A stretch of 35,404 bases of DNA from an uncultured Acidisphaera sp. (GCA_964250825.1 CAXUIE010000002.1:5072-40475); one strand, 5' to 3'; counted from the first letter of the stretch, positions 1,250 through 25,668 are shown. Numbers and translations are program-made. Notes: generated from the sequence alone by a model not told the origin.

Positions 1250-1537
1250 TTACTTACCCTCTTGATTGGTCTTGGCGCTGGCGTCCTTGTTCATCGCCTT
1301 CACCGTTGGAGGTTGGTTGGTCGATCCGGTCTTCTGGGTGGTCGTCGCGGGCGGCGCGTCGCTCGGCAGCGACGTCTGCGATTGGGGCGCCCTGGCGGGT
1401 CGGCTCGCGCTCGCGCCCACTGGCGTATCGGACGTGGCCTGAGCCTGAACCCGCCCGGCGCACAGCACCGGAACGGTCAAGGCCAGGATCACCGCCAGAA
1501 CTCGCTCGGCCATCGGGATCACTCCGCTGCTGCTCAT
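1250..1537 (-). CDS. Small secreted low-complexity protein (95 aa), translationally coupled to the Mo-subunit gene
   Basis: ATG (1535-1537) overlaps the TGA (1534-1536) of the upstream gene (ATGA). The N-terminus is signal-like (AERVLAVILALTVPVLCAGRVQAQA) and is followed by a Ser/Thr/Pro/Gln-rich tail. No recognisable domain, and a shadow ORF cannot be fully excluded. Confidence 0.45.
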   Translation of the reverse strand: MSSSGVIPMAERVLAVILALTVPVLCAGRVQAQATSDTPVGASASRPARAPQSQTSLPSDAPPATTTQKTGSTNQPPTVKAMNKDASAKTNQEGK

Positions 1538-3828: not shown

Positions 3829-3830
3829 GG

Positions 3831-4283
3831 TCAGGCCCCCGTCGCCGCGAGACGCACCGCGATCTCGATTCGCTGGTAACAGCCGCACCGACAGATGTTG
3901 CCGGACATCGACTCGCGGATCTCGTCATTGCTGGGATGCGGGTTGTCCTTGAGCAGCGCCGCAGCCTGCATGATCTGCCCCGCCTGGCAGAACCCGCACT
4001 GCGGCACGTTGACCTCGCGCCACGCCTTCTGCACCGGATGGTCGCCGTGCGGGTCAAGCCCCTCGATCGTCGTCACCTCGCGGTTCCCGACGTCGGACAC
4101 CGCCGTTATGCACGACCGCGTCGCTTGGCCGTCGATGTGAACCGTGCAGGCGCCGCACAACGCCTGGCCGCAACCGAACTTCGTTCCGGTCAGCCCGGCT
4201 TCGTCGCGCAGGAACCAAAGCAGCGGCAGCGACGGATCGCCGTCCCACCTTTGCTCCTGGCCGTTGACCTTAAGTTTGATCAT
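3831..4283 (-). CDS. (2Fe-2S)-binding small (alpha) subunit of the IorAB-type oxidoreductase
   Basis: 150 aa with two [2Fe-2S] cysteine clusters: GCGQALCGACTV (plant-type) and CGFCQ...CRCGCY. It lies immediately upstream of the Mo subunit. Confidence 0.92.
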   Translation of the reverse strand: MIKLKVNGQEQRWDGDPSLPLLWFLRDEAGLTGTKFGCGQALCGACTVHIDGQATRSCITAVSDVGNREVTTIEGLDPHGDHPVQKAWREVNVPQCGFCQAGQIMQAAALLKDNPHPSNDEIRESMSGNICRCGCYQRIEIAVRLAATGA

Positions 4284-4408: not shown

Positions 4409-6136
4409 TCACTTTCTTACCGCGAACACCCAAACGACGCCACCTTGCGGGACGTTGTCTTCGACGCCGACATTGTCCTTGGCGAGCGCGTCCTGGATGC
4501 GCTGCGCATCGACACCCCAGCCCGACTGCACGGCGATGTACTCCGTCCCGTCCACCTCGTAGGCGATGGGCATGCCCACGATGCCCGAGTTGGTCTTCTG
4601 CTCCCAGAGCAGATCCCCGGTCTTGGCGTCGAAGGCGTGGAACTCCCGGTCGTTGGTCCCGCCGACGAACACGAGACCGCCAGCCGTCGCGGTCACGGAG
4701 GCGAACAGCTGCGATCCAGGGAAATTGTGCGACCAGGCCTTCTTTCCCGTTGCCGGATCCCACGCCTGCAACTCGCCGAAATGGTCGGCGCCGGAGCGCA
4801 CAGTCAAGCCGATGTCCTCCGCCTTGGTGCCGAGCCAAGGCTCGCCAGGCTTCAGTGGAAGCTTTTCGCCGGTGAAGCCTCCACAGAAATTCTCATTGGC
4901 GGGCACGTAGACGAGGCCGGTCTGCTGGCTGTAGGCGGCGGACGGCCAGTCCTTGCCGCCCCACAAGGACGGGCAGAACTCGATGCGCTTGCCGAGCGTG
5001 GGCTTATGCGCCGGGTCAACGATCGGCGTGCCGCTGCCGGGCTCGACCCCCTTCCAAACGTTTGTATTCACAAACGGCCAGCTGGCGACGTAGCTGATCG
5101 CGTCGGGCTTGCGCTGCAGCACCCAGAACATCGCGTCGCGGCCGGGGTGGACGAGGCTTTTGATGACGTGGCCGTCGCGGTTCATGTCGATCAGCATCGG
5201 CGCGTCAACCTCGTCCCAGTCCCAGGAATCATTCGGGTGATACTGGTGATAGGCCTTGATCTTGCCGCTGTCAGGATCGAGCCCGATGACCGACGACGTG
5301 TACAGGTTGTCGCCGGGATGAAGGTCACCAGGCCACGGTGCCGCATTGCCGACACCCCAGTAGATCGTCTTGAGGTCGGGGTCGTAGGTGCCGGTCATCC
5401 AGGCCGACCCGCCGCCGGTTTTCCAGGCGTCGCCCTGCCAGGTGTCGTGACCGGGCTCTCCTTCGCCGGGGATCGTGTAGGTGCGCCACAACTCCTTGCC
5501 GTCGTTCGCGTCGAGCGCGACCACGTAGCCGCGCACGCCGAGCTCTCCGCCCGAGCCGCCGACGATCACCTTGCCGTCCACCACCAACGGCATCAAGGTC
5601 ATGTACTGGCCCCTCTTGTACTCCTGGATTTTCTTATCCCACGCGACCTTCCCGGTCTTGGCGTCGAGGGCGACGACATGATCGTCGGTGGTCGCGAGGA
5701 ACAGCTTGTCCTGCCAAAGGCCCACGCCGCGGCTCGTCGGGTGCATCTGATACAGATCGTCCGGCAGCTCGCGCTTGTAGCGCCAAATCTCCTCGCCGGT
5801 TTTGGCGTTGAGCGCAATGACCTGACCCGCCGGCGTCGCGACGAACATGTAGCCGTTATTGATGATGGGCGGCGCCTCGTGGCCTTCGCTCACATTGGTC
5901 GAGAAGGTCCAAACCGGGACGAGGTTCTTGACGTTAGTGGTGTTGATCTGGTCGAGCGTGCTGTAGCCCTGCCCGTCATACGTACGGCGATACAGCATCC
6001 AGTTGCCGGGTTCGGGGTTCTTGAGCCGATCGGCGGTGACCGGGCTGTAGTTGTCGATCTCGCCGGCCCCGGCCGCGATCGGTGCGAGGCACGTCGAGGC
6101 GATCAACGCCGACATCAGCCACTGTTTCACGCTCAT
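4409..6136 (-). CDS. PQQ-dependent dehydrogenase, methanol/ethanol family, paralog 1; lacks the vicinal Cys-Cys and carries a D-x-D motif
   Basis: 575 aa with a Sec-type signal (MSVKQWLMSALIASTCLAPIAAGAG). Eight-bladed propeller W-motif repeats are present (VALDAKTGK..W, AFDAKTGDLLW). Metal/PQQ ligand contexts are GGSGGELGVRGY, GVGNAAPW and NDSWDWDE. ATG at 6134-6136. Confidence 0.93.
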   Translation of the reverse strand: MSVKQWLMSALIASTCLAPIAAGAGEIDNYSPVTADRLKNPEPGNWMLYRRTYDGQGYSTLDQINTTNVKNLVPVWTFSTNVSEGHEAPPIINNGYMFVATPAGQVIALNAKTGEEIWRYKRELPDDLYQMHPTSRGVGLWQDKLFLATTDDHVVALDAKTGKVAWDKKIQEYKRGQYMTLMPLVVDGKVIVGGSGGELGVRGYVVALDANDGKELWRTYTIPGEGEPGHDTWQGDAWKTGGGSAWMTGTYDPDLKTIYWGVGNAAPWPGDLHPGDNLYTSSVIGLDPDSGKIKAYHQYHPNDSWDWDEVDAPMLIDMNRDGHVIKSLVHPGRDAMFWVLQRKPDAISYVASWPFVNTNVWKGVEPGSGTPIVDPAHKPTLGKRIEFCPSLWGGKDWPSAAYSQQTGLVYVPANENFCGGFTGEKLPLKPGEPWLGTKAEDIGLTVRSGADHFGELQAWDPATGKKAWSHNFPGSQLFASVTATAGGLVFVGGTNDREFHAFDAKTGDLLWEQKTNSGIVGMPIAYEVDGTEYIAVQSGWGVDAQRIQDALAKDNVGVEDNVPQGGVVWVFAVRK

Positions 6137-6196: not shown

Positions 6197-6892
6197 TCAA
6201 GCCGATTGTTGCGCGCCTACCTTCCCGATGAAACCCTGCGCCACCGTAATGGTCTGGCCCGCCTTGGCAAGCGGCAGCGCCGCCAAGTGCCGGGGCGCCG
6301 GGCCGAACACCACTTCGGCGCCCTGCCGCGGGTCGTACTCGGAATTATGGCAAAGGCACTTGAGCACGTTCTGGTCGTTCTCCTTGACCCATGCCGTCAC
6401 CGGGCAACCGGCGTGCGCGCAGATTGCCGAATAGGCAACGATGCCGCCGGCGGCGCGCGCCTTCGTGTTCTCGTCGAGTTCCGATTCCTGCAGCCGCAAC
6501 AGAAGCACCTGGTTCAAGCGCGACCCGTCCCGCACGACCTTGGTCCGTGGGTCCATTGGCCACGCCATTACCTGGGGGCCGCCGAGCGGGAGATCTTCGG
6601 GCTTGATGACCTGGCCCACATGCTCGTCTTCGGCAAACACGAGAATGTCGCCCTTTTGGGGCCGCTCGTCGCTGCCGGGCTTTTCCTCGTCATCCGCCCG
6701 CGCCGACCCGGCGGTGGACAGGGCAACGCCGGCCGCCAGCGCCGTCAGCAGAACTTGTCGCCGTGGAGCCGCCGGACCCAACTCATGGTCGCCCGTGTTG
6801 CCCGATTCCATTGAGTTGTCGCCGCCCATCGCCTCGTTCGCCATCCGCGCTACCGCGCCGTGTGCCGACATCGTTGGTAATCCGTGATGCAC
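6197..6892 (-). CDS. Tat-exported Rieske [2Fe-2S] protein
   Basis: Rieske boxes CAHAGC and CLCHNS. Twin-arginine motif PRRQVLLTALAAGVALSTAGSARA. The start is ambiguous: GTG at 6890-6892 is the maximal extent, and in-frame ATGs include 6809-6811 (MESGNTG..), which still precedes the Tat motif. Confidence 0.85.
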   Translation of the reverse strand: MHHGLPTMSAHGAVARMANEAMGGDNSMESGNTGDHELGPAAPRRQVLLTALAAGVALSTAGSARADDEEKPGSDERPQKGDILVFAEDEHVGQVIKPEDLPLGGPQVMAWPMDPRTKVVRDGSRLNQVLLLRLQESELDENTKARAAGGIVAYSAICAHAGCPVTAWVKENDQNVLKCLCHNSEYDPRQGAEVVFGPAPRHLAALPLAKAGQTITVAQGFIGKVGAQQSA

Positions 6893-6998: not shown

Positions 6999-7940
6999 TC
7001 AGTCTCCGGCCAACGCGGTCGGACCGATCGTCGGCGGAACCGCTGGCGTCCGCGGCGGCACGTAGGTCAGCCCGGCGGCGTTCGCGATCGCTTCAACCGC
7101 GTTGCGGGATTGCAAGCTCGCGATGGCGGTGTCCGCCGCCGCGATCAGAGCCCGGTCGGAGGCGAGCCCGACATAGCCCATGTTGAAGCCAACGGAATGG
7201 ACGTAGCCGGTGGCGGCCAACCCGATCGTGCCGTGCTTGAGACGCCACGCGTCGAGCTCGCGCAGCGCCACGAACGCGGCGTCGAGCTCGCCGCGGTCGA
7301 GCCGGTCGAACAGCGCGCGCGCGTCCGGCACGTGGACGACGTGTTCCCGCAGTTGCCCGTCGCCGTAGTTCATGGCGATTGCGTCCGCGAGCGTCGCGAT
7401 CTCGACGCCGACAGTCAGGCCCGCGAGATCGGCTAGCTTGTGGACCGGGCGGTCGCCCTTTTGAGCCGACAGCACCACTGTGATCGCGTCCAGCCTATAG
7501 GGCCGGGTGGGGGCGAGCTCCCCTAATTTTACCCAGCGCGCGCGATCGTCCGGCGCGGCGCCGTCGAAGGGCGGCAGCTTGCCAACTGGCGCGGCCGAGG
7601 GGCCGACCGTGTCCTGCGCCAGCGGATATTCAGCCACAAGCTGGCACCGGCCATCCGACAGTAGCGCGTTCGCCTCCTTGATGAGGCTCGCATCCGGGTC
7701 GTCGCGGCTGACGAACCATTGCACGCGCAACTCGCGCCCGAGGCGCTCCGCAATTGCTCGCGAGAGCGCGACCGCGAAGCCCTCCTTTTCGCTGTTGCGA
7801 ACGGAAAGCGGCGGGTCGCTAGCTTGGAGGCAGACGCGAAGGGTTTTCTCCGCGGAGTTCGGTGCATCGGGCGGAGCGGCCGCTGCAAACGAAGATCCAA
7901 ACGCGAGAACGCAGGCCAGAGCCGCCTCGCGCACCGTCAT
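6999..7940 (-). CDS. Quinoprotein-dehydrogenase-associated periplasmic binding protein (MxaJ/XoxJ-like)
   Basis: Start ATG 7938-7940 (MTVREAALACVLAFG.., signal-like) overlaps the cytochrome c TGA (ATGA). The block LRVCLQASDPPLSVRNSEKEGFAVALSRAIAERLG resembles the MxaJ family. The longer track ORF (to 8135) overlaps the cytochrome gene. Confidence 0.85.
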   Translation of the reverse strand: MTVREAALACVLAFGSSFAAAAPPDAPNSAEKTLRVCLQASDPPLSVRNSEKEGFAVALSRAIAERLGRELRVQWFVSRDDPDASLIKEANALLSDGRCQLVAEYPLAQDTVGPSAAPVGKLPPFDGAAPDDRARWVKLGELAPTRPYRLDAITVVLSAQKGDRPVHKLADLAGLTVGVEIATLADAIAMNYGDGQLREHVVHVPDARALFDRLDRGELDAAFVALRELDAWRLKHGTIGLAATGYVHSVGFNMGYVGLASDRALIAAADTAIASLQSRNAVEAIANAAGLTYVPPRTPAVPPTIGPTALAGD

Positions 7941-8275
7941 TGCGGCGCAACGCCTCCGGTGCGAACATAGGCCCATATCGCCTCGATCTCCTCGGGGTGC
8001 AGGACATCTTTCCAAGGTGGCATGCTTCTCTTGCCGTTTTGGACCGAATTGAAGAAGCGCGCCCGATCCGCATGCGGGAACTTGCGAAGGTCGAAAGACT
8101 GGTTCCCCGGATTGACCATGTGCTTCCCGTGGCACGCGGCACAGATGCTATTGAAGAGTTGGTCGCCCGCTTCGAATTGCTGCGGTGAAGGCGGCGGCTC
8201 CGGCGTGTCGGTCTGGGCCGAAGCTGGCGAAGCGCTAAGCAGCGTTCCCGTGAGAAGCAAGGAGGCAAGCCTCAT
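7937..8275 (-). CDS. Monoheme c-type cytochrome (PedF/ExaB/XoxG-like electron acceptor)
   Basis: 112 aa with a signal peptide (MRLASLLLTGTLLSASPASA) and the heme motif CAACH. A distal Met context (SMPPW) is present. It lies directly downstream of a PQQ dehydrogenase. Confidence 0.9.
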   Translation of the reverse strand: MRLASLLLTGTLLSASPASAQTDTPEPPPSPQQFEAGDQLFNSICAACHGKHMVNPGNQSFDLRKFPHADRARFFNSVQNGKRSMPPWKDVLHPEEIEAIWAYVRTGGVAPQ

Positions 8276-8332: not shown

Positions 8333-9997
8333 TTACTGGGGGGTGAGCGCGAACACCCAAAGCGAGCCGCCGGGCGGAACCGCGGCGAGACGCTCGTCGG
8401 CGGAGAAGATGGCGTAAACGCCGCCGATGCCGCTCGATACCGCGACGTATTGGACGCCGTCCTGCTCCCAGGTGACGGGCTGGCCCTCGATGCCGGAGCC
8501 GGTCTTGAACTGCCAGAGCTTCTTTCCGGTGTCGGTGTCGAACGCCTCGAGCTCGCCGGTCAGCTTGCCGGTGAACACCACGTTGCCGGCTGTCGACAGC
8601 ACGCCGGAGAACCGCGGGATATCGCTCGCCACTTCCCACTTGGACTTGCCCGTCATCGGGTCGAGCGCCTTGAGATAACCCCGAGGCCCGTCTGGCCAAA
8701 CCCAATCGATGTCCGCACCCCAATAGGTCAGTCCAGCCCGGTACTGCGGCGTCGTCGGCTTGTAGTGCATGCCCATGTTGATCGTGTTTGCGTAGACGAG
8801 GCCGTTGTTCGGATCGAAGGATATCGGCATCCAGTTCTTGGCCCCGAGCGCGCTTGGCCAAACTTCCTGAGCCTGGCCTTGCTTCACTTTATCGGTCACC
8901 TCCGTCGGGATCGGGCGGCCGGTTTGCATATCGACGCCCTTGGCCCAGGTGATCTTCTGGATGAAGGGGTTGGCCGCGAGCAGCTTGCCGTTCTCCCGGT
9001 CGAGCACGTAGAAGAAGCCGTTTCGATTCGCGTTCATCACGACCTTGGCCGGCTTGCCGTCGATGTTCAAGGTCGCGAGCACCATCTCAGCCACGCTGTC
9101 ATAGTCGTAGGGATCGTTGGGCGTGAACTGGTAATGCCACTTCATCTGACCCGTCTTCGGGTCGAGCGCCACGACGGAGCACGTGTAAAGGTTGTCGCCA
9201 GGATGCGTCATCGGGTTCCATGATCCTGCGTTCCCGGTGCCCCAGTAGACTGTATGAAGATCGGGGTCGAAGGAGCCGGTGATCCATGTCGACGCGCCGC
9301 CGTGCTGCCACGTATCGCCCGGCCAGCTCTTGGCTTCCGGGTCGCCCGGTCCGGCGACGGTGTAGGTCCGCCACAGATGCTTGCCGGTGTCGGGATCCCA
9401 GCCGTCGATGAAGCCGCGAATGCCGTATTCGGCGCCGGAGATGCCGGTAATGACAACGCCGTCCGCGACCAGCGGCGCGACCGTCATCGAGTAGCCGGTC
9501 TTGTAGTCGATCGCGTTCTGCTTCCAGAGCTCCTTGCCGGTCTTGGCGTCGAGCGCCATCACGTTCGCGTCGAGCGTCGTGCGGAATAGCTTGCCGTCAT
9601 ACAACGCGGCGCCCCGGTTGATGATGCCGCAGCACACGATGCGCGGCGTTTCCGGCGGGTAGTCGATCTTGCTTTTCCACAGCTGCTGCCCGGTCTTGGA
9701 GTCGAGCGCCATGGTCGCGGCGTTGGTCGTGACGTAGAGCACGCCCTTGTAGATAAGCGGCTGCGATTCTTCGCTCTTGTTGTCGTCGTAGCTGTAGTTC
9801 CAAACCGGGACCAGGCGCTTGACCGTGTCGCGATTGATCTGCGTCAGCGGGCTGAACCGCTGGAGGTCATAGCTCATTCCGTAGTTCAGGACTTCGGACG
9901 TGTCCGCCGTCCCCTTGGCCAGGTCGGCCGAGGTTTGAGCCTGCGTAGCAAGGGGCGCCAGCACCGCGAGCGACGCCGCGAGCAGAAGCTTTCGCAC
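8333..9997 (-). CDS. PQQ-dependent alcohol dehydrogenase, paralog 2; canonical Cys-Cys and a D-x-D motif
   Basis: 554 aa. GTG start at 9995-9997 is preceded by a purine-rich GGGAAGGGAAG. Signal RKLLLAASLAVLAPLATQAQ, vicinal disulfide context PRIVCCGIINRG, and ligand contexts GISGAEYGIRGF, GTGNAGSW and NDPYDYDS. Confidence 0.93.
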   Translation of the reverse strand: MRKLLLAASLAVLAPLATQAQTSADLAKGTADTSEVLNYGMSYDLQRFSPLTQINRDTVKRLVPVWNYSYDDNKSEESQPLIYKGVLYVTTNAATMALDSKTGQQLWKSKIDYPPETPRIVCCGIINRGAALYDGKLFRTTLDANVMALDAKTGKELWKQNAIDYKTGYSMTVAPLVADGVVITGISGAEYGIRGFIDGWDPDTGKHLWRTYTVAGPGDPEAKSWPGDTWQHGGASTWITGSFDPDLHTVYWGTGNAGSWNPMTHPGDNLYTCSVVALDPKTGQMKWHYQFTPNDPYDYDSVAEMVLATLNIDGKPAKVVMNANRNGFFYVLDRENGKLLAANPFIQKITWAKGVDMQTGRPIPTEVTDKVKQGQAQEVWPSALGAKNWMPISFDPNNGLVYANTINMGMHYKPTTPQYRAGLTYWGADIDWVWPDGPRGYLKALDPMTGKSKWEVASDIPRFSGVLSTAGNVVFTGKLTGELEAFDTDTGKKLWQFKTGSGIEGQPVTWEQDGVQYVAVSSGIGGVYAIFSADERLAAVPPGGSLWVFALTPQ

Positions 9998-10144
9998 GTT
10001 TCTTCCCTTCCCTGTGTGCCAAGAGCGGCACGTCTGGCGTTGTTCTTCGGCGGCCGTCTGCGGACCACTTGAAAGTAGCGTATCGCCCGCACGCAGCGTT
10101 TGCGATAGGGCGAAGTGCGCGTTCCCGACAAAATTCTGGCGCGG

Positions 10145-10156
10145 CGGAGATCTCCG
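10145..10156. promoter_or_regulatory. Perfect 12-bp palindrome CGGAGATCTCCG about 150 nt upstream of PQQ dehydrogenase 2; possible operator
   Basis: Seen directly in the 174-nt pqqE-to-dehydrogenase spacer. No known motif is assigned. Confidence 0.2.
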
Positions 10157-10171
10157 GACGGCTGACGCAGT

Positions 10172-11281
10172 TCAGGCGGGAACGGCGCCAATCCGGCGAT
10201 AAATGAAGGGAGGCGGAGCCTTCTCGCTCGCCTGCACCGCGATATCGAGCACAGCGTGGTGCGGGGACAGGCCGCACGCGGGATCGGTCGCCGCCGCGTC
10301 GCCGGTCAGCGCGAAAGCCTGGCAGCGGCAGCCGCCCCAATCGATCTCGCGTCGATCGCAGCCGGCGCAGGGCGCGGGCATCCAATCGGTGCCCCGGAAC
10401 CGGTTGAATGCATCCGAATCCCGCCAGATCTCGGCGAGCGAGCGGTCGCGCACGGAAGGGAAATCGAAGCCGGGAAGGCTTTCCGCCGCATGACAAGGCA
10501 GCACGCGGCCGGCCGGGGTCACGACGATGAAGCGTTGTCCCCAACCGCCCATGCAGGGTTTCGGCAGTCGCGCGTGGTAGTCCGGCACGACGTAGTCGAT
10601 CACGACCGCTCCGGCCAAGCGCGCCCGCGCCGCCTCGACATCGGCCGTCCCGACCTCGAGCTGGGCGCGGGAAGGGAGCAGGGCGACTTGGTTGGCCAGT
10701 GCCCAGCCATAATACTGAACATGCGCGACCTCGACCCGCGCCGCGCCAAGCTCCACCGCCATGTCGAGCATGGCCGATAAATTGCCCAGGTTTTGGCGGT
10801 GAACGACCAGATTGACGGTGAGCGGCAGGCCGGCACGCCGCACCATCGCCGCGACCTCCCGCTTCTTTTGCTGCGCGCCCGCCATCCCGGCGACGCGGTC
10901 GCCGTTGGCGTCGTCGGCGTCCTGGAAGCTGATCTGCACGTGGTCGAGCCCGGCATCGGCGAGGGCCGTCAGGCGCGCATCGTTAAGCGTGACGCCGGAC
11001 GTGATTAGGTTGGTGTAGAGACCCGCTCCGACCGCGTGACGGACTAGATCGGCTAGGTCGCGCCGCGCGGCCGGCTCGCCGCCGGAGAAGTGCACCTGCA
11101 GCGCGCCGATCGCCGCCGCCTCCGTCAGCACGCGACGCCATTCCGTCGTGTCGAGTTCGCCGCCCGCGCCGCCCAGCTGCGTCGGGTTGGAGCAGTACGG
11201 GCATTGTAGCGGGCAGCGATGGGTAAGTTCGGCAAGGATCGCGAGCGGCGCCGCGAGAGCGGTGCTGGCGTTGTTCGACAT
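10172..11281 (-). CDS. pqqE: PqqE, radical SAM/SPASM peptide cross-linking enzyme
   Basis: CPLQCPYCSNP radical-SAM motif near the N-terminus, and a C-terminal SPASM Cys cluster (CMGGWG.., PCAGCDRREIDWGGCRCQA). Start ATG 11279-11281 (MSNNAST) is preceded by GGAGGAA. The track start at 11380 is an unsupported extension. Confidence 0.95.
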   Translation of the reverse strand: MSNNASTALAAPLAILAELTHRCPLQCPYCSNPTQLGGAGGELDTTEWRRVLTEAAAIGALQVHFSGGEPAARRDLADLVRHAVGAGLYTNLITSGVTLNDARLTALADAGLDHVQISFQDADDANGDRVAGMAGAQQKKREVAAMVRRAGLPLTVNLVVHRQNLGNLSAMLDMAVELGAARVEVAHVQYYGWALANQVALLPSRAQLEVGTADVEAARARLAGAVVIDYVVPDYHARLPKPCMGGWGQRFIVVTPAGRVLPCHAAESLPGFDFPSVRDRSLAEIWRDSDAFNRFRGTDWMPAPCAGCDRREIDWGGCRCQAFALTGDAAATDPACGLSPHHAVLDIAVQASEKAPPPFIYRRIGAVPA

Positions 11282-11393
11282 TTCCTCCGTGTCCCTTCCC
11301 CGGCGTAAGCCGCCGACATTGGATCGCTTCCGCCGTCCGGACGAGCAATAGGGCGCATAAGCGCCAGTCGGGCGCGACAAAGCCCGATCGGCT

Positions 11394-11490: not shown

Positions 11491-11568
11491 ATGTCCTGGC
11501 GCAAACCCACTATTAGCCGTATTGCTGTCGGCTGCGAGATCAACGCGTATGGCTGCGCCGTCGTCTGA
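11491..11568 (+). CDS. pqqA: PqqA, PQQ precursor peptide (25 aa: MSWRKPTISRIAVGCEINAYGCAVV)
   Basis: Not in the ORF track because it is too short. ATG at 11491 is preceded by GGGAG 8 nt upstream; TGA at 11566-11568. The W3/P6/G14/E16/Y20 spacing is identical to known PqqA peptides (M-x-W-x-x-P...G-x-E-x-x-x-Y). Glu and Tyr are the residues fused into PQQ. Confidence 0.85.
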   Translation: MSWRKPTISRIAVGCEINAYGCAVV

Positions 11569-11585: not shown

Positions 11586-11619
11586 CCGGGTGCCGCGGCC
11601 GAGACCGCGTTGCACCCGG
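11586..11619 (+). terminator. Compound hairpin after pqqA (CCGGGTGC-CGCGG-ccgaga-CCGCG-tt-GCACCCGG)
   Basis: Read directly, 18 nt after the pqqA stop. Stem-loops that give a short abundant pqqA transcript are known in other pqq operons. There is no U-tract. Confidence 0.5.
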
Positions 11620-11700
11620 AACAGCCGTTGCGGACTGTGTCGGCGCCCGCCGCTTGGGTGTCTGACGGTTCGGGTGCAGGGCTTCGGGGTCCGCCGGACG

Positions 11701-12696
11701 ATGGCAGCGCCAAGCTTCACGCTTAATCAGCTGCGCATATTCCTGGCTGTCGCACACGCGAGATCGCTGACCCGCGCCGCCAAGCTGCTGGACCAGACGC
11801 AGCCCTCATTGTCTCAACACATCGCCAAGCTCGAGGAATCCGTCGGACAACTATTGTTTGAGCGGGGTCGCGGCCAGTTCGACCTGACGGACGCCGGCGC
11901 ATTCCTGTGCCGCCGCGCCGAAGTCATCATGGCCGAGGTGGACGAGGCGGTGTCCGGGCTCGAGGCTCATGCGAAGGGGATGCGCGGCGTGCTGTCGATC
12001 GGGGCGCTCAGCTCGATCGCGCGCAATCTGCTGCCTGGCGCGCAGACGCGGATGGCCGAGGCCTTCCCGGACCTGGAACTCGACGTGCACGAGGTCGCCC
12101 CCGGCGAGGCGATCGAGATGCTGTACACGCGGCGCCTGACAGTCGCGCTCGTCGCGGCGGGATCGCTCGCTCCGAGCACGCTATCGTTCGCGCGAACCGA
12201 CGTGTTCCGCGACTCATACGTGCTCGCGGTGCCTCGGTCGCTCAATCTACGCGGCGTTGTCGATCCGGCTTCGGAGCTTGGCCCCGGCGCGCGACGCGTG
12301 CTGAACAGCGCGGTGCAGTTCACCTTCGGAACGCAGCACCAGTTGCGCATCTCGGGCTGGTACGATCGCTTTCTCCCGGGTCATTGCGTAGTGGGGCGCG
12401 TGCGGTCGTACGAACTGGCGCTGGCGATGGTGCAGGGGGGACGCGGCATCGCGATCGTCCCGGCGCTCAGCGCCCGGATCGGAGCGGGTGTCGCGTACCA
12501 GGTGACACTCTACGACGTCGGCCTCGAGCAGCGGGACATTGTCGCCCTGACTCCGTCACAATACCGCGGCGTCGAACCGCACGCGAGCCTGTTGGCCGCG
12601 CTCCGCGCGGCGGGATCCTCGATCGATTTGCCGTCGGTGGAGCCGACGCCGCCGTTTCTGCGCGCCGAACGGGCTACGGCGGCGGCGGCGCAGTAG
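11701..12696 (+). CDS. LysR-family transcriptional regulator
   Basis: N-terminal HTH LNQLRIFLAVAHARSLTRAAKLLDQTQPSLSQHIAKLEE plus a LysR substrate-binding-type C-terminus. Start ATG at 11701 (MAAPSF). The 3' end overlaps the pqqD 3' end by 23 nt (convergent). Confidence 0.9.
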   Translation: MAAPSFTLNQLRIFLAVAHARSLTRAAKLLDQTQPSLSQHIAKLEESVGQLLFERGRGQFDLTDAGAFLCRRAEVIMAEVDEAVSGLEAHAKGMRGVLSIGALSSIARNLLPGAQTRMAEAFPDLELDVHEVAPGEAIEMLYTRRLTVALVAAGSLAPSTLSFARTDVFRDSYVLAVPRSLNLRGVVDPASELGPGARRVLNSAVQFTFGTQHQLRISGWYDRFLPGHCVVGRVRSYELALAMVQGGRGIAIVPALSARIGAGVAYQVTLYDVGLEQRDIVALTPSQYRGVEPHASLLAALRAAGSSIDLPSVEPTPPFLRAERATAAAAQ

Positions 12697-12988
12697 CGTC
12701 CTCCAGCACGCCGTCGTCGGCGAGATCCTGCAACAGCGAGAGAATGTCGGCGAGGATCTCCTCGCGCGGCGCGTTGAATCGGCTCGCGAGCGCATCCGCG
12801 ATCGCAGCGACCGAACGGCTGGCGTCGACCAGCTTCAATACCTCGACGGCGATCTCGTCGGGCATCATCAGCCGTTCTGGTGCAAGAATGATCCACGCCT
12901 GCCGGGTTGCGTCGAAGCGGAAGCGGGTGCCGCGCGGCAAGCGCGGAACCGAGGCGGCCGCGACGACAAGCCGGGCGCGCGCGGTCAA
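12674..12988 (-). CDS. pqqD: PqqD, peptide chaperone for PqqE
   Basis: 104 aa, with VPRLPRGTRFRFDATRQAWIILAPERLMMPDEIAVEVLKLVDASRSVAAIADAL typical of PqqD. There is no upstream ATG or GTG in frame. The proposed TTG start (12986-12988) overlaps the pqqC TGA (12985-12987). Confidence 0.85.
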   Translation of the reverse strand: MTARARLVVAAASVPRLPRGTRFRFDATRQAWIILAPERLMMPDEIAVEVLKLVDASRSVAAIADALASRFNAPREEILADILSLLQDLADDGVLEDATAPPPP

Positions 12989-13734
12989 TGGTCGGACGGC
13001 ACGAACGCGCCGGGCGAGACGTGCTTCGGTGAGACGTAGGCGTAGCAAAGCGCATCCATCTGCGCCCACAGCACGTCGCACTTGAACCGGAGCGCGGCGA
13101 GCACGCCGTCCTGCTCCGCTCGGGTCCGCGCGTGGGTTTTGCAGTACTCGAGCGCGAACTGCACGTCTTGCGGCGCCTGGGTCAGCCGCGGCTGGAAATA
13201 CGCCAAGGTCTCGCGGCTCACGAAATCGTAGTTGGCGAGCATTCCCTCGACCCGTTCGGCGATGATGACCGGCGAAAACATCTCGGTCAGCGACGACGCG
13301 ATCGCGTCCAGCAGCGATTGGTCGCGCACGAACGCGACATAAGCGTCGACCGCGAACCGCGTGGCCGGAAGCAGGCCTCGCGTCGAACGGACATAATCGC
13401 GGTCGAGCCCCAAGCCGTCGGTCATCCGGAGCCAGCGCTCGATGCCGCCGGGTTGCTGGCCGTCCCCGTCGTGGTCGACCAGGCGCGACCGCCAGGCGCG
13501 GCGCAGCTCGGGCGTGGGCAGGCGCGCGATGAGCGTCGCGTCCTTGGCGGGAATGCGGCACTGATAATAATAGCGGTTCAGTGCCCAGGCCTGGATCTGC
13601 CCGCGGGTCAGCTGCCCGCCATACATGCGTCGGTGGAACGGGTGATTGCTGTGGTAACGCTCCGCTCCGATCGCCCGCAGCTCCCGCTCCAGTTCCTCAG
13701 GGCCGAGCAGGGTCGTCGCCCGGTCGTCGGTCAT
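12985..13734 (-). CDS. pqqC: PqqC, pyrroloquinoline-quinone synthase
   Basis: 249 aa with family-typical blocks (YHSNHPFHRRMYGGQLTRGQIQAWALNRYYYQ, RFKCDVLWAQMDA). The ATG overlaps the pqqB stop (ATGA). Confidence 0.95.
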   Translation of the reverse strand: MTDDRATTLLGPEELERELRAIGAERYHSNHPFHRRMYGGQLTRGQIQAWALNRYYYQCRIPAKDATLIARLPTPELRRAWRSRLVDHDGDGQQPGGIERWLRMTDGLGLDRDYVRSTRGLLPATRFAVDAYVAFVRDQSLLDAIASSLTEMFSPVIIAERVEGMLANYDFVSRETLAYFQPRLTQAPQDVQFALEYCKTHARTRAEQDGVLAALRFKCDVLWAQMDALCYAYVSPKHVSPGAFVPSDH

Positions 13735-14678
13735 AGGGTGACCTCCATTCCGTCATAGGCTACGTCCCAGCCGGCGTTCGCCGCGATCGCGCGCTCGGCC
13801 GAATCGTCGAGTAGGACGGGGTTGCTGTTATTGATGTGGATGAGCATTTTCCGCTCGACGCTGAGACCGCGGAAGGCCGCGATGGTGCCGTCCGGATCGG
13901 CGACGCTCATGTGCCCCATCCGCTTGCCGGTCTTGGCGCCGGACCCTTCCCGGATCATCTCGTCATCCGTCCAGAGCGTGCCATCGAAGAACACCAAGGC
14001 CGCGCCGCGCAGCCGTTCGGCAAGCTCCGGGGTCATGCGGGCGCACCCCGGGATGAAGAAGCAGCGCGCGCCGGACGCGTCCTGTAGCACGATTCCGACG
14101 GTGTCCTCCGCTTCGCCCGCGAGCCGCGCGCTGTCCCGCTCGAGGTACAGGGCCACCTTGCCGGGAACCGCGAAAAGCTCGGCCGTGAGCCCGCCAGGCA
14201 ACGCGAATGGCAGCTCGAGCGCGACCACCCGGCGTTCGACGTAGTCCGGCGATAGCGCGCCGAAGATCGGATTGGCCCCGATCACTCCGAGCACGCGGCC
14301 GGTCGCGAACAACGTGAAAGGCTGGCTTTCCCTCAGAACGAGCAGGCCGGCGACCGCGTCCACCTCGCTTCCGGTCAGCACCACGCCGGCGACCGGCGAA
14401 TGACGGAGCTTATCGCGCGGATGCAGAACCGGGCAGGCCTCGATCTGTTGGCGGAGGTCGGGGCTGGCGTTGACCAGCGTCCAGTGCTCCCCGTCGCCGG
14501 ACACGGCGATGCCGCATTGCGTGCGGGGCCGCGCCGCTGGATCGCCGGCGCGCGCGCGGCGGCAGGCGGCGTTGTTCGCGTTCCATTGCGGGAACCCGCC
14601 ACCCGCCGCGGCGCCGAGCACGACAATACGCAGCGGCGCATCCTCCCTCGCTCGCGTGCACGAAACGCATCGTGTCAC
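13731..14678 (-). CDS. pqqB: PqqB (metallo-beta-lactamase fold)
   Basis: VVLGAAAGGGFPQWN N-terminal signature. The maximal start is GTG 14676-14678 with no SD. A CTG at 14631-14633 (giving M-RIVVLGAAAGGG) sits 8 nt after AGGGAGGA and matches the usual PqqB N-terminus better. Confidence 0.92.
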   Translation of the reverse strand: MTRCVSCTRAREDAPLRIVVLGAAAGGGFPQWNANNAACRRARAGDPAARPRTQCGIAVSGDGEHWTLVNASPDLRQQIEACPVLHPRDKLRHSPVAGVVLTGSEVDAVAGLLVLRESQPFTLFATGRVLGVIGANPIFGALSPDYVERRVVALELPFALPGGLTAELFAVPGKVALYLERDSARLAGEAEDTVGIVLQDASGARCFFIPGCARMTPELAERLRGAALVFFDGTLWTDDEMIREGSGAKTGKRMGHMSVADPDGTIAAFRGLSVERKMLIHINNSNPVLLDDSAERAIAANAGWDVAYDGMEVTL

Positions 14679-14702
14679 CGATCGGGAACGCCGGAAAGGT
14701 GG

Positions 14703-17060
14703 TCAGAACGTTACACGTAGTCCGCCGAAGCCGCCCACGGGAGCCGCGATGCTGTAGCTTCGCGTGTTCGTCGCCCCGGGCGCTTGCACGATCGGAATGG
14801 CCGAAGTGGGAGAGAACGTGCCGTAGGTGTAGTAGCGGGCGTTCGCGACGTTGCGGACCAAGCCGAACAGCTCGACCCCCGGCGCGATCCGGTAGCTCGT
14901 GTTGAAGTTGAGGACGAAGTAGCCGGGCGTCGTTGGCGTCAGGTTCGCCTCGTCGCCGAACAGCACCTGCCCGCTTGCGGCGAGCGCGGTGGCGCCCACG
15001 GTCCACGCCTTCGTCACTCGCCAGTTCGCGCCGATCTTGAGCAAGTGGCGCGGGATGCCGGGCAAGCGGTCGCCCGGGCGGATCGTGATGTTGCCGTTCG
15101 CGTCCGCTCCGGGATTGTAAGGGCTGGCCGCGGTGAAGCCGGAGCCGAACGTCGCGTCGATCAACGAATAGTTCGCGTAGGCGGACCAGCGCCCGGCGGT
15201 CAGCGACAGCCCGGCGTCCACGCCTTGCCGGCGCGTTTGTCCGACGTTCTCAAAGAACGCGCGGCCGACCACGCTGCTGTTCACGAACAGGATGTCGTCG
15301 TCGAGGTTGGTGTGAAAATAGCCGGCGTTCCAGCTGAGCGCCGTGCCGTCGAACGGGTGGAACCGGCCGCGCAGCCCGGCTTCAACCGTGTGGCCGACAA
15401 CCTGCTTGAGGTTCGGGTCGCCCACGAAGAAGTTGGCGAGCGAGCAGGGCGACGCCGCGTCCGCGCAGGACAGTTCGGCGGGCGTCGGTGCCCGGCTGGA
15501 TTCCGCGTAGCTCGCGTAGGGGGTGAGCCAATCGGCCACGCGCCAGGCAATGCCGACGCTCGGGTTGAAGCGGCTGTAGACGTGCACGCCGTTCAAGGCG
15601 GTCCCGTTCTGGTCGGCGAGATTGGTCTGGATGTTGTTGAACCGTCCTCCGACCGTCAGCGACAGGCGCTGCGTCAGGTCGAGCGTGTCGGTGCCGAACA
15701 GACCGAACGTGTTGTTCGTGATGCCTAGCCGCACCGGCGCGATCGATCCATCAGGCTGGTCGATGGTGATGCCCGGCCCGATAAAAGCGCGCGAGGCAAG
15801 CGCAAGGCCGCCAATATCGGATGCGGCGCTGAATATGGTGTTCGCGCCGTCATAGCTGCCGCCCATCGTGATCTGGTTGGGCAAGCCGAACACCGCTCTC
15901 CGGTCCGTCATCTGGAGAGAGGCACCGTAGCCGTTGGTGTCGGTCGACTGCCGGTCCAGCTGCGAATAAGGGCCGCCCGCGAGGAAATCCGGGACCGGGC
16001 TGCCACCTCGGTCGATGACCGGGTTACCGTTTTGATCGCACAGGCCGCCGCCGCCACTGGAGCATGATGTGATCCCGGTGACGTTGCCGTTGGCGACCCT
16101 CTGCTGGAAGCTGTCGTAGTAGGCGACGGTCGCGAGTGAAGTGGTGGGGCCGAGCTCGAAGCTGCCATTGAGATCGAGCAGCCCATAGGTGTTGGCGACT
16201 TGGTTCGGCAAGGTGAACGCTTGGCGCGGGTCGGCCGCGATGAGCTCGACCGGCGACGTCCCCGGCCCGTTCAGCGTGTTGTCCGCCCCGGCAATGCTGA
16301 GATGCAACTCGCCCCGCTCGCCGCGCCAGCCGACGTCGCCGAAGATGTTGTAAACGTCCGACGATTGCTGGTCGCGCCACCCGCTCTCATGCGCTGCGGT
16401 CCCGGCGACGTAGGCCGCGGTTCCGTCGCGCTCGGCGCCGTACTGGAACTGGCCCTCGACGCGACCAAACGAGCCGCCGTCGCCGATCAGCTCGCCGCCG
16501 TGGAACGTGAACCCGTTCTTCGTTTGAATGGACAGCGCTCCACCAAGCGCGTTCAGCCCATAGACGGGGTTGGCGCCGACCAGGTTGACCTCATCGATGG
16601 CGTTGTCCGGCAGCAGGTCCCAGTTGACCGTGTCGCCGAACGGCTGGTTGAAGCGAACGCCATCGAGGTAAACGGCGAGGCCTTGCGCGTTGCCCTGCAG
16701 TGGCGACGCCTGAAAGCCGTGGTAATACAGGTTGGGCTGGAACGGGTTGCCGGCCGCGTCGTCCAGCGTGACGCCAGGCGTGGTGTCTCGGAGCGCCCGC
16801 AGCAGAGAAGGGTTGCCCTCCCGCTCGAGATCCTGACTTGTCAGCACGCTGGTTTCGCCTGGAACCTTGTCCCGATCGATCCCCGATCCGAGCAGCGGCG
16901 TGGTGCCGACGACCTCGACCGGGGGCAGCGTAGTGGCAGGGGGCGGCGACGGAGGGTCGACAGGCGGTTCCGCTGCGGCCGCGAGCGTCTGGCTGGCTAC
17001 GGCGACGGCAGCCGCGTGCAGCAGCGCGGAGCGGCCAAACGACTTGCGAAGGGTCGGCAC
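14703..17060 (-). CDS. TonB-dependent outer-membrane receptor
   Basis: 785 aa with a signal peptide, Pro-rich linker and TonB-box-like LPPVEVVG. Plug-domain blocks are present (GVTLDDAAGNPFQPNLYYHGF, VYLDGVRFNQPFGDTVNWD). C-terminal barrel ends in ..GGLRVTF. The stop is only 24 nt upstream of the pqqB ORF. Confidence 0.93.
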   Translation of the reverse strand: MPTLRKSFGRSALLHAAAVAVASQTLAAAAEPPVDPPSPPPATTLPPVEVVGTTPLLGSGIDRDKVPGETSVLTSQDLEREGNPSLLRALRDTTPGVTLDDAAGNPFQPNLYYHGFQASPLQGNAQGLAVYLDGVRFNQPFGDTVNWDLLPDNAIDEVNLVGANPVYGLNALGGALSIQTKNGFTFHGGELIGDGGSFGRVEGQFQYGAERDGTAAYVAGTAAHESGWRDQQSSDVYNIFGDVGWRGERGELHLSIAGADNTLNGPGTSPVELIAADPRQAFTLPNQVANTYGLLDLNGSFELGPTTSLATVAYYDSFQQRVANGNVTGITSCSSGGGGLCDQNGNPVIDRGGSPVPDFLAGGPYSQLDRQSTDTNGYGASLQMTDRRAVFGLPNQITMGGSYDGANTIFSAASDIGGLALASRAFIGPGITIDQPDGSIAPVRLGITNNTFGLFGTDTLDLTQRLSLTVGGRFNNIQTNLADQNGTALNGVHVYSRFNPSVGIAWRVADWLTPYASYAESSRAPTPAELSCADAASPCSLANFFVGDPNLKQVVGHTVEAGLRGRFHPFDGTALSWNAGYFHTNLDDDILFVNSSVVGRAFFENVGQTRRQGVDAGLSLTAGRWSAYANYSLIDATFGSGFTAASPYNPGADANGNITIRPGDRLPGIPRHLLKIGANWRVTKAWTVGATALAASGQVLFGDEANLTPTTPGYFVLNFNTSYRIAPGVELFGLVRNVANARYYTYGTFSPTSAIPIVQAPGATNTRSYSIAAPVGGFGGLRVTF

Positions 17061-17069
17061 CTCAGGCGG

Positions 17070-18296
17070 TCAGAACCGGCACGCCGTTTCCGGAGCATCG
17101 ACGCCGAGCGTGTCCAGCACGTTCGTTTGATGGAGAAACTGCGGCAGCGGCGCGCGCTCGATCACGGCGTCCGCGGTGCTGAGCAGCACGGGCGCCCGCA
17201 GTTGATGATCCCACGGCCGAAAGCTTCCGGGATTGCCTTTCACCGTGTCAAGGTTGAGCTTGTCGCTCAGCAGCACCGCCTTCACCGCTTCGAAACTGGT
17301 CGAGCGCGCCTGCACAGTGGCCTGCGTGACGGCCTTTACCGCCTCCCACGCCGCCCAGTCGGCGCCCCCCATCCGACGTGGCGGCACCGTCCTCTCGTAG
17401 CGGTGCTGCAATTGCACGGCGGCATCGCGGTCCCAGCTCCAGGACCATGCCGTCGGCATCAGGCCGGCGCTGCCGACGACCGGGCGGGGAAGGTTTGTCT
17501 GGTAGGGGATGAAGCGGCCGAACTCGCCGCTGCTGTCGGCCACGTATACGACGTCGTAGCGTGGCCCCTCGGTCATCAGCGCCACGTTGCTTTGCTCGCG
17601 GTGGCGCGGATCGTTGGACAGCAGGAATGGCCTGGTCTCGACGATTTTGGCGCCGAACTTCTTCGCCGAGCGCTGCAAAGCTGCGACGGAGTGGGCATCG
17701 TCCGGCGACGGCCCCTGCAGAACGAGTATTTGCGGCCACCCCTTGGCGACGAGAAATTGGATGAGGGCGTCCGACAGCATCGATCGGCTCGGATAAGTGT
17801 GGAGCAGCACGGGCGAGCAATCGGCGCCGCGGAGCGCGTCGTCGGGAGCGGAAACGTTGAATATCAACACGGGCTTGCCGGCGAACCGGCGGCCCAGGTC
17901 GGCCAATGTCGCCGCCGGCAGGTCGGCTACGATGAAGTGGACATCTTCCGTGTCGCTCCAGCGCGCGATCCGCTGGGCGATCTCGTCGGGGGACGCTCCG
18001 GCGAATCGGTTCAACGCGAACGCGACGCCGATCACGCGCCCGACCGCGCGCGCGTCGTCGAGCGCCACCTGGCTGCCGCCGAAAGGCCGTCCGACATCGG
18101 TAAACAGGATGCCCGAACGCGCGCCCTTGTCGGCGTAGCGTTCGTCATCGGCCAGCTCGACATAGCCGAGCGTCATCGGCTTGAGCGCGGGGGTCTCGGC
18201 CGGCGCGGCGGCCCGCGGCCCGATCGCGCACAGGAGGGCTGCCGCCCACGCCAGAAATCCGCACCGAACGCGCTGAAACCATCCCGCCCGTGCCAT
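17070..18296 (-). CDS. Periplasmic substrate-binding protein (Leu/Ile/Val-binding fold) of the type associated with PQQ-dehydrogenase systems; no cognate permease or ATPase in the window
   Basis: Start ATG 18294-18296 (MARAGWFQRVRCGFLAWAAALLCAIGPRAAA, signal-like). The body (TLGYVELADDERY..VLIFNVSAPDDALR..ILVLQGPSPDD) resembles the PQQ-ADH-system ABC binding-protein family. The track ORF to 19073 is an unsupported extension. The stop lies 9 nt before the TonB-receptor start. Confidence 0.8.
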   Translation of the reverse strand: MARAGWFQRVRCGFLAWAAALLCAIGPRAAAPAETPALKPMTLGYVELADDERYADKGARSGILFTDVGRPFGGSQVALDDARAVGRVIGVAFALNRFAGASPDEIAQRIARWSDTEDVHFIVADLPAATLADLGRRFAGKPVLIFNVSAPDDALRGADCSPVLLHTYPSRSMLSDALIQFLVAKGWPQILVLQGPSPDDAHSVAALQRSAKKFGAKIVETRPFLLSNDPRHREQSNVALMTEGPRYDVVYVADSSGEFGRFIPYQTNLPRPVVGSAGLMPTAWSWSWDRDAAVQLQHRYERTVPPRRMGGADWAAWEAVKAVTQATVQARSTSFEAVKAVLLSDKLNLDTVKGNPGSFRPWDHQLRAPVLLSTADAVIERAPLPQFLHQTNVLDTLGVDAPETACRF

Positions 18297-18500
18297 TCGG
18301 TGACGCCTACCCTCCCATTTTGCCCTGACGCGTTCCGTCCGCCAGTGTGATCCAGGAAAAACGGCGCAGCAACGGCCGAGGCTTTCATCGATCGCGACGG
18401 CAACCCGGTAGACGCCCCGTTCGTTACCGCTCGCGTAAACAAATGTCGCGGGACGGCGGCTCGCTTGTCGTTCCGACGGCAAAACGGGGGGATAGGAAGC

Positions 18501-18746
18501 ATGGGCCCATTGAAAACAACTTTGGCCATCGTCGGGCTGGTGGTTGTGGCGGGCGTCGGCGCGCCGGCGCATTCGCAGACCGACCCGTCCAAGACCGGCA
18601 CCGGGCCGCGCGGAACGGCGGTTGGGCCGTCGACGGAACCCTCGCCCAACTCCAACGGCACCGGCAACGCGAGCTCCGGGGCGAACTCGGGCAAGGCGAG
18701 CGTGTCCAACAAGTCGAATCGACCCGCTCAAGGCGACAGCCGCTGA
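18501..18746 (+). CDS. Small secreted Gly/Ser/Pro/Asn-rich protein (81 aa)
   Basis: ATG at 18501 is preceded by GGGGGGATAGGAAG. Signal peptide MGPLKTTLAIVGLVVVAGVGAPAHS, followed by a low-complexity tail. No domain recognised. Confidence 0.45.
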   Translation: MGPLKTTLAIVGLVVVAGVGAPAHSQTDPSKTGTGPRGTAVGPSTEPSPNSNGTGNASSGANSGKASVSNKSNRPAQGDSR

Positions 18747-19805: not shown

Positions 19806-20105
19806 TCAGATTTGCCGGCGGGCGGCTTCCTTGCGTCTCCATGTGCGGCGCCAATCGGAAGGGGGCGGGGAAGCATTGTGATGATCCGCGAGCACGGATA
19901 ACCATGCCGCAACGCTGGACGGTATGCTGGTCCTGCCCTGTTCCCAGTGCCAAACGGTCACCCTCGAGCAGTCCAGCTGCCGGGCGACCTCGGCGATCGA
20001 CCAGCCAATCGTATCGAGGCAACGTCGGAACCACGGTCCGTCGACGCTTGCTTTATCCTGCCGGACGACGCCTAGAAATTCTGTGCTGCTGGAAAGTGTT
20101 TTCAT
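19806..20105 (-). CDS. Small HTH (XRE/Cro-like) DNA-binding protein
   Basis: ATG at 20103-20105 (MKTLSS..). HTH-like segment LDTIGWSIAEVARQLDCSRVTVWHWEQGRTSIP. An AT-rich spacer lies upstream, and no clear SD is seen. Confidence 0.55.
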   Translation of the reverse strand: MKTLSSSTEFLGVVRQDKASVDGPWFRRCLDTIGWSIAEVARQLDCSRVTVWHWEQGRTSIPSSVAAWLSVLADHHNASPPPSDWRRTWRRKEAARRQI

Positions 20106-20199
20106 GTTCACGACAATAAAATGGTTTGAGGGAAGGTCAGTGTTTGACGAGTTCGAGGTTAATCCGTGCTCTGCTCTACTCCCGGCTTCGAGAAATGTT

Positions 20200-25659: not shown

Positions 25660-25668
25660 CCTCGGCGA

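Follow-up and report, generated by a model that had tools for sequence, protein, structure and literature searches.

The stretch of DNA studied here, 35,404 nucleotides (nt) from a soil alphaproteobacterium, an uncultured Acidisphaera sp. (GCA_964250825.1 CAXUIE010000002.1:5072-40475), is referred to as the window, and positions are counted from its first letter. Five genes lie head-to-tail on its minus strand and encode a periplasmic substrate-binding protein (SBP), a TonB-dependent receptor (TBDR) and the pyrroloquinoline quinone (PQQ) biosynthesis proteins PqqB, PqqC and PqqD (Table 1). Judging from homology and gene context, the first two genes would form a reduced lanthanide-acquisition module which is joined to pqqBCD and coupled with PQQ synthesis; we give this reading a probability of about 0.6. 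An initial annotation, made from the sequence of the window alone, had offered import of lanthanides and scavenging of PQQ as two options for the receptor. Lanthanide import is favoured due to the likeness of the receptor to LutH, the placement of the SBP in the PedA1/LutA family, the synteny of homologues, which occur in lut/ped-type clusters, and the two PQQ dehydrogenases with a D-x-D motif. The same annotation gave the five genes, their coordinates, the gaps of 9 and 24 nt and the overlaps between pqqB, pqqC and pqqD correctly, 24 nt being the distance to the first in-frame GTG. Its statement that the receptor is physically wired to the genes for cofactor synthesis was borne out. It had, however, missed a pqqA gene on the opposite strand, and also that the cluster continues downstream with pqqE and the dehydrogenase genes.

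The receptor had the architecture of a TBDR, with an N-terminal signal-like sequence followed by PF07715 and PF00593 domains. Its end-to-end alignment with the LutH-like receptor of Methylosinus trichosporium OB3b covered 757 aa at 38.3% identity and scored 506 bits (E 2e-172). The OB3b receptor, which is reported to be needed for XoxF expression with cerium, served as the LutH reference, its sequence being taken from PMC12482762 (Table S2). An identity of 38% was found to the pMNOD02 receptor of Methylobacterium nodulans, the gene of which is followed by a response-regulator gene and then by a gene for a lanmodulin-like protein with four DPDxDGT EF-hands. This order mirrors that in Methylorubrum extorquens AM1, where lutH and lanM are neighbours. 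In that strain lanthanum lowers lutH expression four-fold. The match to LanA of Methylotuvimicrobium was confined to 52 bits at 21% identity, too low for the receptor to be counted as a LanA homologue. In a neighbour-joining tree, a check which the initial annotation had proposed, the window clade was placed in a large radiation composed mostly of Acetobacteraceae and unclassified alphaproteobacterial metagenome-assembled genomes (MAGs). That radiation was sister to the receptors of OB3b and M. nodulans, i.e., to the LutH group, and PqqU and LanA were distant outgroups. The genomic association was also that of LutH, with a LutA-type SBP and two D-x-D dehydrogenases in the window itself, and with homologues located beside ATP-binding cassette (ABC) clusters and lanmodulin. 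On full-length homology and genomic association we regard the receptor as LutH-like and as a putative lanthanide receptor. Two further candidates were dismissed in the course of these comparisons. The M. extorquens protein P0280, considered as the LutH of strain AM1, was 66% identical to the M. nodulans receptor and 38% to that of the window, and had no lut genes nearby; it was the only M. extorquens match among the top 120 to the M. nodulans receptor and is probably an accessory paralogue. A match on a Methylocalor plasmid lay in a transposase-containing context and was uninformative.

The SBP passed the TIGR03863 model narrowly (Table 1), canonical members scoring from 457 to 463 bits, and was 36-39% identical to the canonical TIGR03863 proteins of full PedA1A2BC-type clusters. 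It represents a divergent "orphan" branch of the PedA1/LutA family with no ABC partner nearby. The branch comprised more than 100 protein clusters at a threshold of at least 70% identity, mostly from soil metagenomes, and many of these were named as SBP of a "PQQ-dependent alcohol dehydrogenase system". The systems PedA1A2BC and LutA/E/F have been tied experimentally to lanthanide-dependent growth (PMC6839425, PMC7391723). That the SBP stands without permease and ATPase genes, as stated in the initial annotation, was confirmed by tblastn with canonical proteins as queries, since no homologue of PedB, PedC or the YVTN propeller was found in the window; the sole match to the ABC queries was the generic nucleotide-binding domain of an MsbA-like exporter at 33.1-34.9 kb. 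Cognate TIGR03864 and TIGR03861 genes were also absent from the window and were not adjacent in any of the related loci L081-L083, L088-L091 and L093-L096 (L numbers denote the loci compared). The ABC partners of the SBP could be encoded elsewhere in the genome. In L081 and L082 a YVTN propeller of family TIGR03866 precedes the SBP (308.6 bits against a cut-off of 287.3 for the propeller in L082), and on family assignment this couple is the PedA2-PedA1 pair. In the window itself, the sequence preceding the SBP gene was searched for a remnant of such a propeller gene, and none was found. Pairs of a YVTN propeller and an SBP 70-77% identical to ours were also seen in L090, L091, L093 and L094 (SBP at 10001-11215 in each), in all four with a cytochrome c nearby and in L091, L093 and L094 with a PQQ dehydrogenase as well. 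A conserved protein of about 248 aa followed the pair in L093 and L094, and no ABC ATPase, permease or receptor was adjacent at any of the four loci.

The window carries the full pqqABCDE set, with the five core genes within 4.5 kb. Alignment to solved structures gave D-x-D motifs in both PQQ alcohol dehydrogenases, DYD in one and DWD in the other, in agreement with the initial annotation. The nearest structures to both enzymes were the quinoprotein ethanol dehydrogenase entries 6ZCV and 6ZCW. Searches of the Protein Data Bank (PDB) gave no sequence match to the TBDR at E<1e-5, and at E<=0.01 only a weak LivJ-like match (3I09) to the SBP, with no match to PqqT (9B1U/9B1V, a group-2 binding protein); these searches consequently gave no structure-based inference of the substrate.

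The second option for the module is salvage of PQQ, in which the TBDR would re-import leaked PQQ or an intermediate and the SBP would hold it, in the manner of PqqU and PqqT. The direct adjacency of transport genes and PQQ biosynthesis genes speaks for it. In addition, PQQ producers lose PQQ and use capture proteins, pqqU and pqq genes are syntenic in four Burkholderiales genomes (PMC12124388), and pqqU of E. coli adjoins the YVTN propeller gene yncE. The receptor itself, however, does not resemble PqqU. It scored 87.5 bits with the PqqU equivalog model NF041535, for which the cut-off is 1200, and its BLAST match to E. coli PqqU, with 73 bits, spanned just 291 aa in the C-terminal barrel. The PQQ-binding signature of PqqU consists of Y/F/W99, R304 and R365 (PMC12124388); in a MAFFT alignment the corresponding residues in the TBDR were Gln, Val and Arg, the alignment being weak near 304 and 365. 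The SBP, for its part, is a PedA1-family protein of type I (Peripla_BP_6) and gave no match to the group-2 protein PqqT (PDB 9B1U). We therefore consider salvage of PQQ very unlikely.

If the module does serve lanthanide acquisition, a path can be proposed in which we infer the substrate, the co-transcription and the destination of the metal. The LutH-like receptor, energised by TonB, would move a lanthanide, which is probably chelated, through the outer membrane, and the PedA1/LutA-like SBP would capture it in the periplasm. From there the metal would go straight to the two D-x-D PQQ alcohol dehydrogenases in the same compartment, or else be passed to an importer of PedBC/LutEF type encoded outside the window. 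A promoter ahead of the SBP gene would most likely drive pqqBCD too, in which case metal and organic half of the lanthanide-PQQ cofactor would be supplied together. A variant of this path, in which PQQ or a pqqBCD-dependent product is secreted as a lanthanide carrier, the receptor takes up lanthanide-PQQ and the SBP hands the pair to the dehydrogenases with the cytoplasm bypassed, seems to us quite improbable. If true, it would explain the receptor, the SBP and pqqBCD as one unit, and also why this widespread subfamily of SBPs occurs without ABC permease and ATPase.

Two kinds of neighbourhood were compared with that of the window. Firstly, a scan with the receptor alignment, taking one genome per species, gave 80 loci at 50-71% identity. 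In 18 of these, pqq, PQQ-dehydrogenase or ped-type ABC genes were present within 10 kb of the receptor homologue. A receptor 62% identical to ours followed 58 nt after the genes TIGR03863-TIGR03866-TIGR03864-TIGR03861 in L005, and L072 was similar; this is the complete PedA1A2BC/LutABEF-type set. The same set was found within 10 kb of the receptor homologue in L004, L008, L023, L027 and L060. L004 in addition has pqqBCD, with a divergent kinase gene upstream, and a 60%-identical receptor 1.2 kb after pqqE. Loose linkage of a TBDR to pqq genes is common in the family to which the window receptor belongs. An independent case of such loose linkage is found in Betaproteobacteria, in the chromid of Paraburkholderia largidicola (L086, 4593-12130), where a 37%-identical receptor lies about 2 kb after pqqBCDE, with one hypothetical gene between them; this receptor adjoins formylmethanofuran dehydrogenase and fhcD genes.

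Secondly, the gene order SBP-TBDR-pqqB itself goes beyond chance, being recovered from independent contigs, namely L083, L088, L082, L095 and L096, and in part from L097. In all, the fusion was present on at least six other metagenome contigs, which belong to one narrow clade with nucleotide identities of 79-87%. L083 and L088, in which the receptor was 87% identical, had the same junction as the window with a conserved sequence between TBDR and pqqB, and the downstream order of LysR gene, pqqE, dehydrogenase and cytochrome was also retained in L088. L082, L095 and L096 (78%) had the order YVTN-SBP-TBDR followed by a 385-nt spacer and pqqBCD. The SBP and TBDR genes were tightly coupled throughout the clade except in L089, either by 9 nt or by overlapping, the latter in L081, L082 and L095. 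L089, a locus of the MAG GCA_963757115.1, is the closest sequenced genome; it runs collinear to the window on either side of the receptor site, with about 79% identity. The segment at the TBDR-pqqB junction of the window was found there within the spacer between SBP and pqqB. The MAG of L089 has a 71%-identical receptor elsewhere (L001), next to a kinase/regulator pair.

A number of points weigh against a lanthanide module coupled with PQQ synthesis. Among TBDRs an identity of 38% leaves the substrate unfixed, and the comparison covered the LutH-like receptors of OB3b and M. nodulans. The window holds no ABC permease or ATPase that would complete the canonical uptake path. In about 39 of 83 loci the neighbour of the receptor homologue was a two-component system, which makes this the commonest neighbour rather than genes for PQQ or lanthanides, and SBP-TBDR-pqqB was found in none of the 80 species genomes with TBDR homologues; the synteny survey which the initial annotation had called for gave recurrence in the narrow clade only. 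L089 lacks exactly positions 14702-17064, i.e., the receptor gene, and has 40 unrelated nt instead, giving the order SBP-pqqB. L081 has the SBP-TBDR module without pqq genes. The spacer of L082 (12368-12752; also in L095 and L096) contains the 3' part of a degraded esterase (alpha/beta-hydrolase) gene, 78% identical over 50 aa (E 3e-23) to the esterase that is intact after the receptor in L081; the remnant marks a rearrangement breakpoint. The junction being young and variable, the adjacency could be a by-product of rearrangement. Finally, the window and L089 have a conserved segment before pqqB in common, which could hold a promoter of its own.

One alternative is that the genes are adjacent without functional coupling: the TBDR would import another metal chelate, for instance of iron, it would have landed between the SBP gene and pqqB by local rearrangement, and co-transcription would be incidental. 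Compared with L089, the receptor is a clean indel the size of one gene, flanked by the 9-nt direct repeat GTTCTGACC, and the esterase remnant stands at the junction of L082. Within the family, the receptor gene most often adjoins genes for a histidine kinase and a LuxR-type regulator, or a TonB gene, and not PQQ genes; the homologues are annotated as iron receptors in the source records. These "iron" names are, however, generic automatic labels. Furthermore, the TBDR is similar over its full length to LutH-like receptors, its homologues recur across lineages near pqq operons, near PQQ dehydrogenases and near ABC clusters of ped/lut type, and the coupling of SBP and TBDR is tight in the window clade outside L089. 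For these reasons we consider uncoupled adjacency unlikely.

Irrespective of the substrate, the arrangement is evolutionarily labile and not a conserved ancient operon. The TBDR gene is a gene-sized presence/absence polymorphism, as seen in L089, and the SBP, TBDR and pqq modules are recurrently close whilst their exact junctions have been remade several times. The repeat GTTCTGACC occurs at 14701-14709 and 17068-17076 on the minus strand, with these two copies only in the window (0.19 expected); the copies are placed at the stop codons of the SBP and TBDR genes and bracket a 2,363-nt segment absent from the L089 site. That L089 arose simply by deletion between the repeats was considered, but gives no exact fit due to the 40 unrelated nt at that site. 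In the loci with a two-component system, the neighbour is a divergent HisKA_3 kinase (UhpB/MctS-like) with a LuxR-type regulator, located just upstream of the receptor homologue (L001, L012, L016, L041, L064, L069 and about 33 others), and a TonB gene was upstream in about 15 loci. The module of L081 (2153-7571) adjoins genes resembling the N-methylglutamate pathway of methylamine use, with GATase, GXGXG, Glu_synthase, Gln-synt_C and DAO domains.

With respect to transcription, the gene layout makes it plausible that SBP, TBDR and pqqBCD constitute one operon. The overlaps of pqqB with pqqC and of pqqC with pqqD were 4 nt each. No terminator-like site was found in either gap, the regional count being that expected from shuffled sequence. 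Folding across both junctions was no more stable than in shuffled sequence (z of +0.6 and +2.5), in line with the earlier remark that neither junction has a hairpin. The promoter of pqq operons is normally supplied by pqqA. In the window, pqqA is on the strand opposite to pqqBCD and pqqE; L082 and L004 share this inversion of pqqA. Another pqqA was sought upstream of pqqB and in the 385-nt spacer of L082, and was found in neither. Since pqqA is oriented, with its promoter, against pqqBCD, only a short spacer separates TBDR and pqqB and no terminator intervenes, co-transcription is likely, and read-through into pqqBCD, taken alone, seems fairly probable from the layout.

An additional internal promoter before pqqB is possible in view of the conserved segment there and of pqqBCD standing alone in relatives. 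In its stronger form there would be two transcription units, SBP-TBDR on the one hand and, on the other, pqqBCD with a promoter of its own, placed either within the conserved 69-nt spacer or within the 3'-terminal part of the TBDR gene. That pqqBCD can stand alone is seen from L004, with its divergent kinase gene upstream, and from L082 with its long spacer, and roughly 80 nt before pqqB are conserved from the window to L089 in spite of the different genes that precede them. Against it, a scan of the minus strand between 10000 and 19500 gave no sigma-70-like site; this negative was given little weight, since the sigma-70 model is weak for GC-rich Alphaproteobacteria. The lack of a terminator after the TBDR gene, moreover, would permit read-through even given an internal promoter. 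Two separate units appear rather doubtful to us, and as regards the substrate this layout overlaps with the two other alternatives as well as with lanthanide import.

The length of the spacer depends on the start of pqqB. The PqqB profile and the relatives aligned to the window gene only from codon 16-17. In L004 pqqB starts at this place with GTG after GGAGGA; the equivalent codon in the window is CCG, and the next one is CTG at 14633, after a strong GAGGGAGGA. The codon pair in this segment (14619-14678, minus strand) is thus CCG-CTG in the window, GTG-CTG in L004 and CTG-CTG in L082 and L089. In L089 the upstream GTG is not in the pqqB frame. From these alignments pqqB seems to be without a canonical start codon at its conserved N-terminus, and may be translated from the CTG or from the non-conserved upstream GTG. 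Because the profile and relatives match from codon 16-17, the start of L004 is there and the GTG of L089 is out of frame, the real gap between TBDR and pqqB may be 69 nt instead of 24, which is still short.

Methylotroph genomic islands are known to combine lanthanide uptake, pqq and XoxF/ExaF-type genes. Every part of the window system belongs to a known family, and it is the arrangement which is unusual, clade-restricted, recently remodelled and at the same time mechanistically unsurprising. The system shares its TBDR family and a LutA-type SBP with the lut cluster (lutA-H, lanM) of M. extorquens AM1/PA1 and with the OB3b LutH-like receptor, as well as the presence of lanthanide-type PQQ dehydrogenases and pqq genes in that part of the genome. 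It differs from the lut cluster by having no LutE/LutF, lanmodulin or LutB-type YVTN propeller, the propeller being present in sister lineages, and by its position immediately upstream of pqqBCD, apparently as one unit, where the lut cluster is separate. From PedA1A2BC of Pseudomonas putida KT2440 we recognise the PedA1 family (TIGR03863) in the SBP, despite the low identity to canonical members, and the PedA2 family (TIGR03866) in the sister-lineage neighbour, and both systems stand beside PedH-like D-x-D dehydrogenases. P. putida has the PedB ATPase and the PedC permease but no LutH-like receptor (PMC6839425), whereas the window has the reverse, a receptor and no ABC membrane parts.

E. coli PqqU (YncD) and the four Burkholderiales PqqU-pqq loci (PMC12124388) likewise have a TBDR gene co-oriented with PQQ genes, suggesting co-regulation; the TBDR of the window is of another family, the PqqU signature residues are not conserved in it, and its predicted substrate is a lanthanide (chelate) and not PQQ. 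In E. coli K-12 (L087, 5964-9369), pqqU is divergently adjacent to yncE, the product of which is a YVTN-type seven-bladed propeller, and this pair parallels the propeller-SBP-receptor order of L081 and L082. As in the canonical pqqABCDE(F) operon, pqqB, pqqC and pqqD of the window are translationally coupled by their overlaps. Unlike in that operon, pqqA is inverted and shares the interval from pqqD to pqqE with a LysR gene, transport genes take the place of pqqA in front of pqqB, and pqqE heads a separate run with dehydrogenase genes.

The initial annotation did not recognise fusion of such a transporter into a pqq operon as a described arrangement. This holds for the tight fusion, in that we found no report in the literature of a LutH-like receptor and a LutA-like protein directly before pqqBCD; it does not hold for TBDR-pqq linkage in general, which is common in loose form and of which the PqqU-pqq synteny is a published example (PMC12124388). 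Nor did we find descriptions of an inverted pqqA or of an abundant PedA1/PedA2-like subfamily without ABC partners. If the five genes are co-transcribed, one promoter would control both halves of the lanthanide-PQQ cofactor, and the window would offer a simple system, outside the classical methylotrophs, in which to ask how bacteria adjust metal uptake and cofactor synthesis to each other. Of greater importance may be the SBP subfamily, being common in soil metagenomes and regularly found beside PQQ dehydrogenases without ABC membrane components. It hints at lanthanide handling confined to the periplasm, which is absent from the models of M. extorquens and P. putida. The natural variants, with the receptor present, absent, or with a pseudogene in the spacer, are ready comparisons for the fitness effect of the linkage.

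Table 1. Features of the window, with the module and its junctions first and the remaining genes after them.
Feature	Position	Strand	Remarks
Periplasmic binding protein (SBP)	17070..18296	-	408 aa, signal peptide; Peripla_BP_6; TIGR03863 418.8 bits, cut-off 413.6
LutH-like TonB-dependent receptor (TBDR)	14703..17060	-	785 aa; plug and barrel
pqqB	13731..14678	-	TIGR02108 392 bits, cut-off 245
pqqC	12985..13734	-	TIGR02111 368 bits; 4-nt overlap with pqqB
pqqD	12674..12988	-	TIGR03859 75 bits, cut-off 46; TTG start overlaps pqqC stop
SBP-TBDR junction	17061..17069	-	9 nt, from sequence
TBDR-pqqB junction	14679..14702	-	24 nt to GTG; 69 nt if pqqB starts at CTG 14633
Divergent intergenic region 5' of SBP gene, presumed promoter region of the unit	18297..18502		ribosome-binding site GGGAGGG; conserved in part with L088 and L089
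pqqA	11491..11568	+	25 aa, MSWRKPTISRIAVGCEINAYGCAVV; motif scan
Hairpin after pqqA	11586-11621		-42 kcal/mol, z -3.05
LysR-family regulator	11701..12696	+	HTH_1 and LysR_substrate; convergent with pqqD, 23-nt overlap at 3' end
pqqE	10172..11380	-	TIGR02109 545 bits
PQQ alcohol dehydrogenase, D-Y-D lanthanide motif, PedH/ExaF-like	8333..9997	-	TIGR03075 678 bits; best PDB 6ZCV/6ZCW
Small c-type cytochrome	8275..7937	-	weak matches to cytochromes c of c6 and PedF type
SBP_bac_3-like protein	about 7940..6999	-	weak Pfam match
Rieske protein	6892..6197	-	Rieske domain
Second PQQ alcohol dehydrogenase, D-W-D motif	4409..6136	-	TIGR03075 610 bits; alignment to 6ZCV
Molybdenum oxidoreductase	3888..1534	-	MoCoBD domains

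The GC content along the window was 62-72%, and scans for Rfam families and tRNA genes gave no match in it. The LysR gene of Table 1 was found at the same place in L088, L089 and L093. Upstream of the SBP gene, in divergent orientation, there is a gene for a nucleoside deoxyribosyltransferase. The part from 19900 to 35000 is a region of polysaccharide and lipid biosynthesis, syntenic with L089 and L095, and contains genes for a GINT1_N-domain protein, a fatty-acid hydroxylase, a GNAT protein, a Wzx-like flippase and glycosyltransferases, as well as for a Wzc-like tyrosine kinase, WecG and the MsbA-like ABC exporter.

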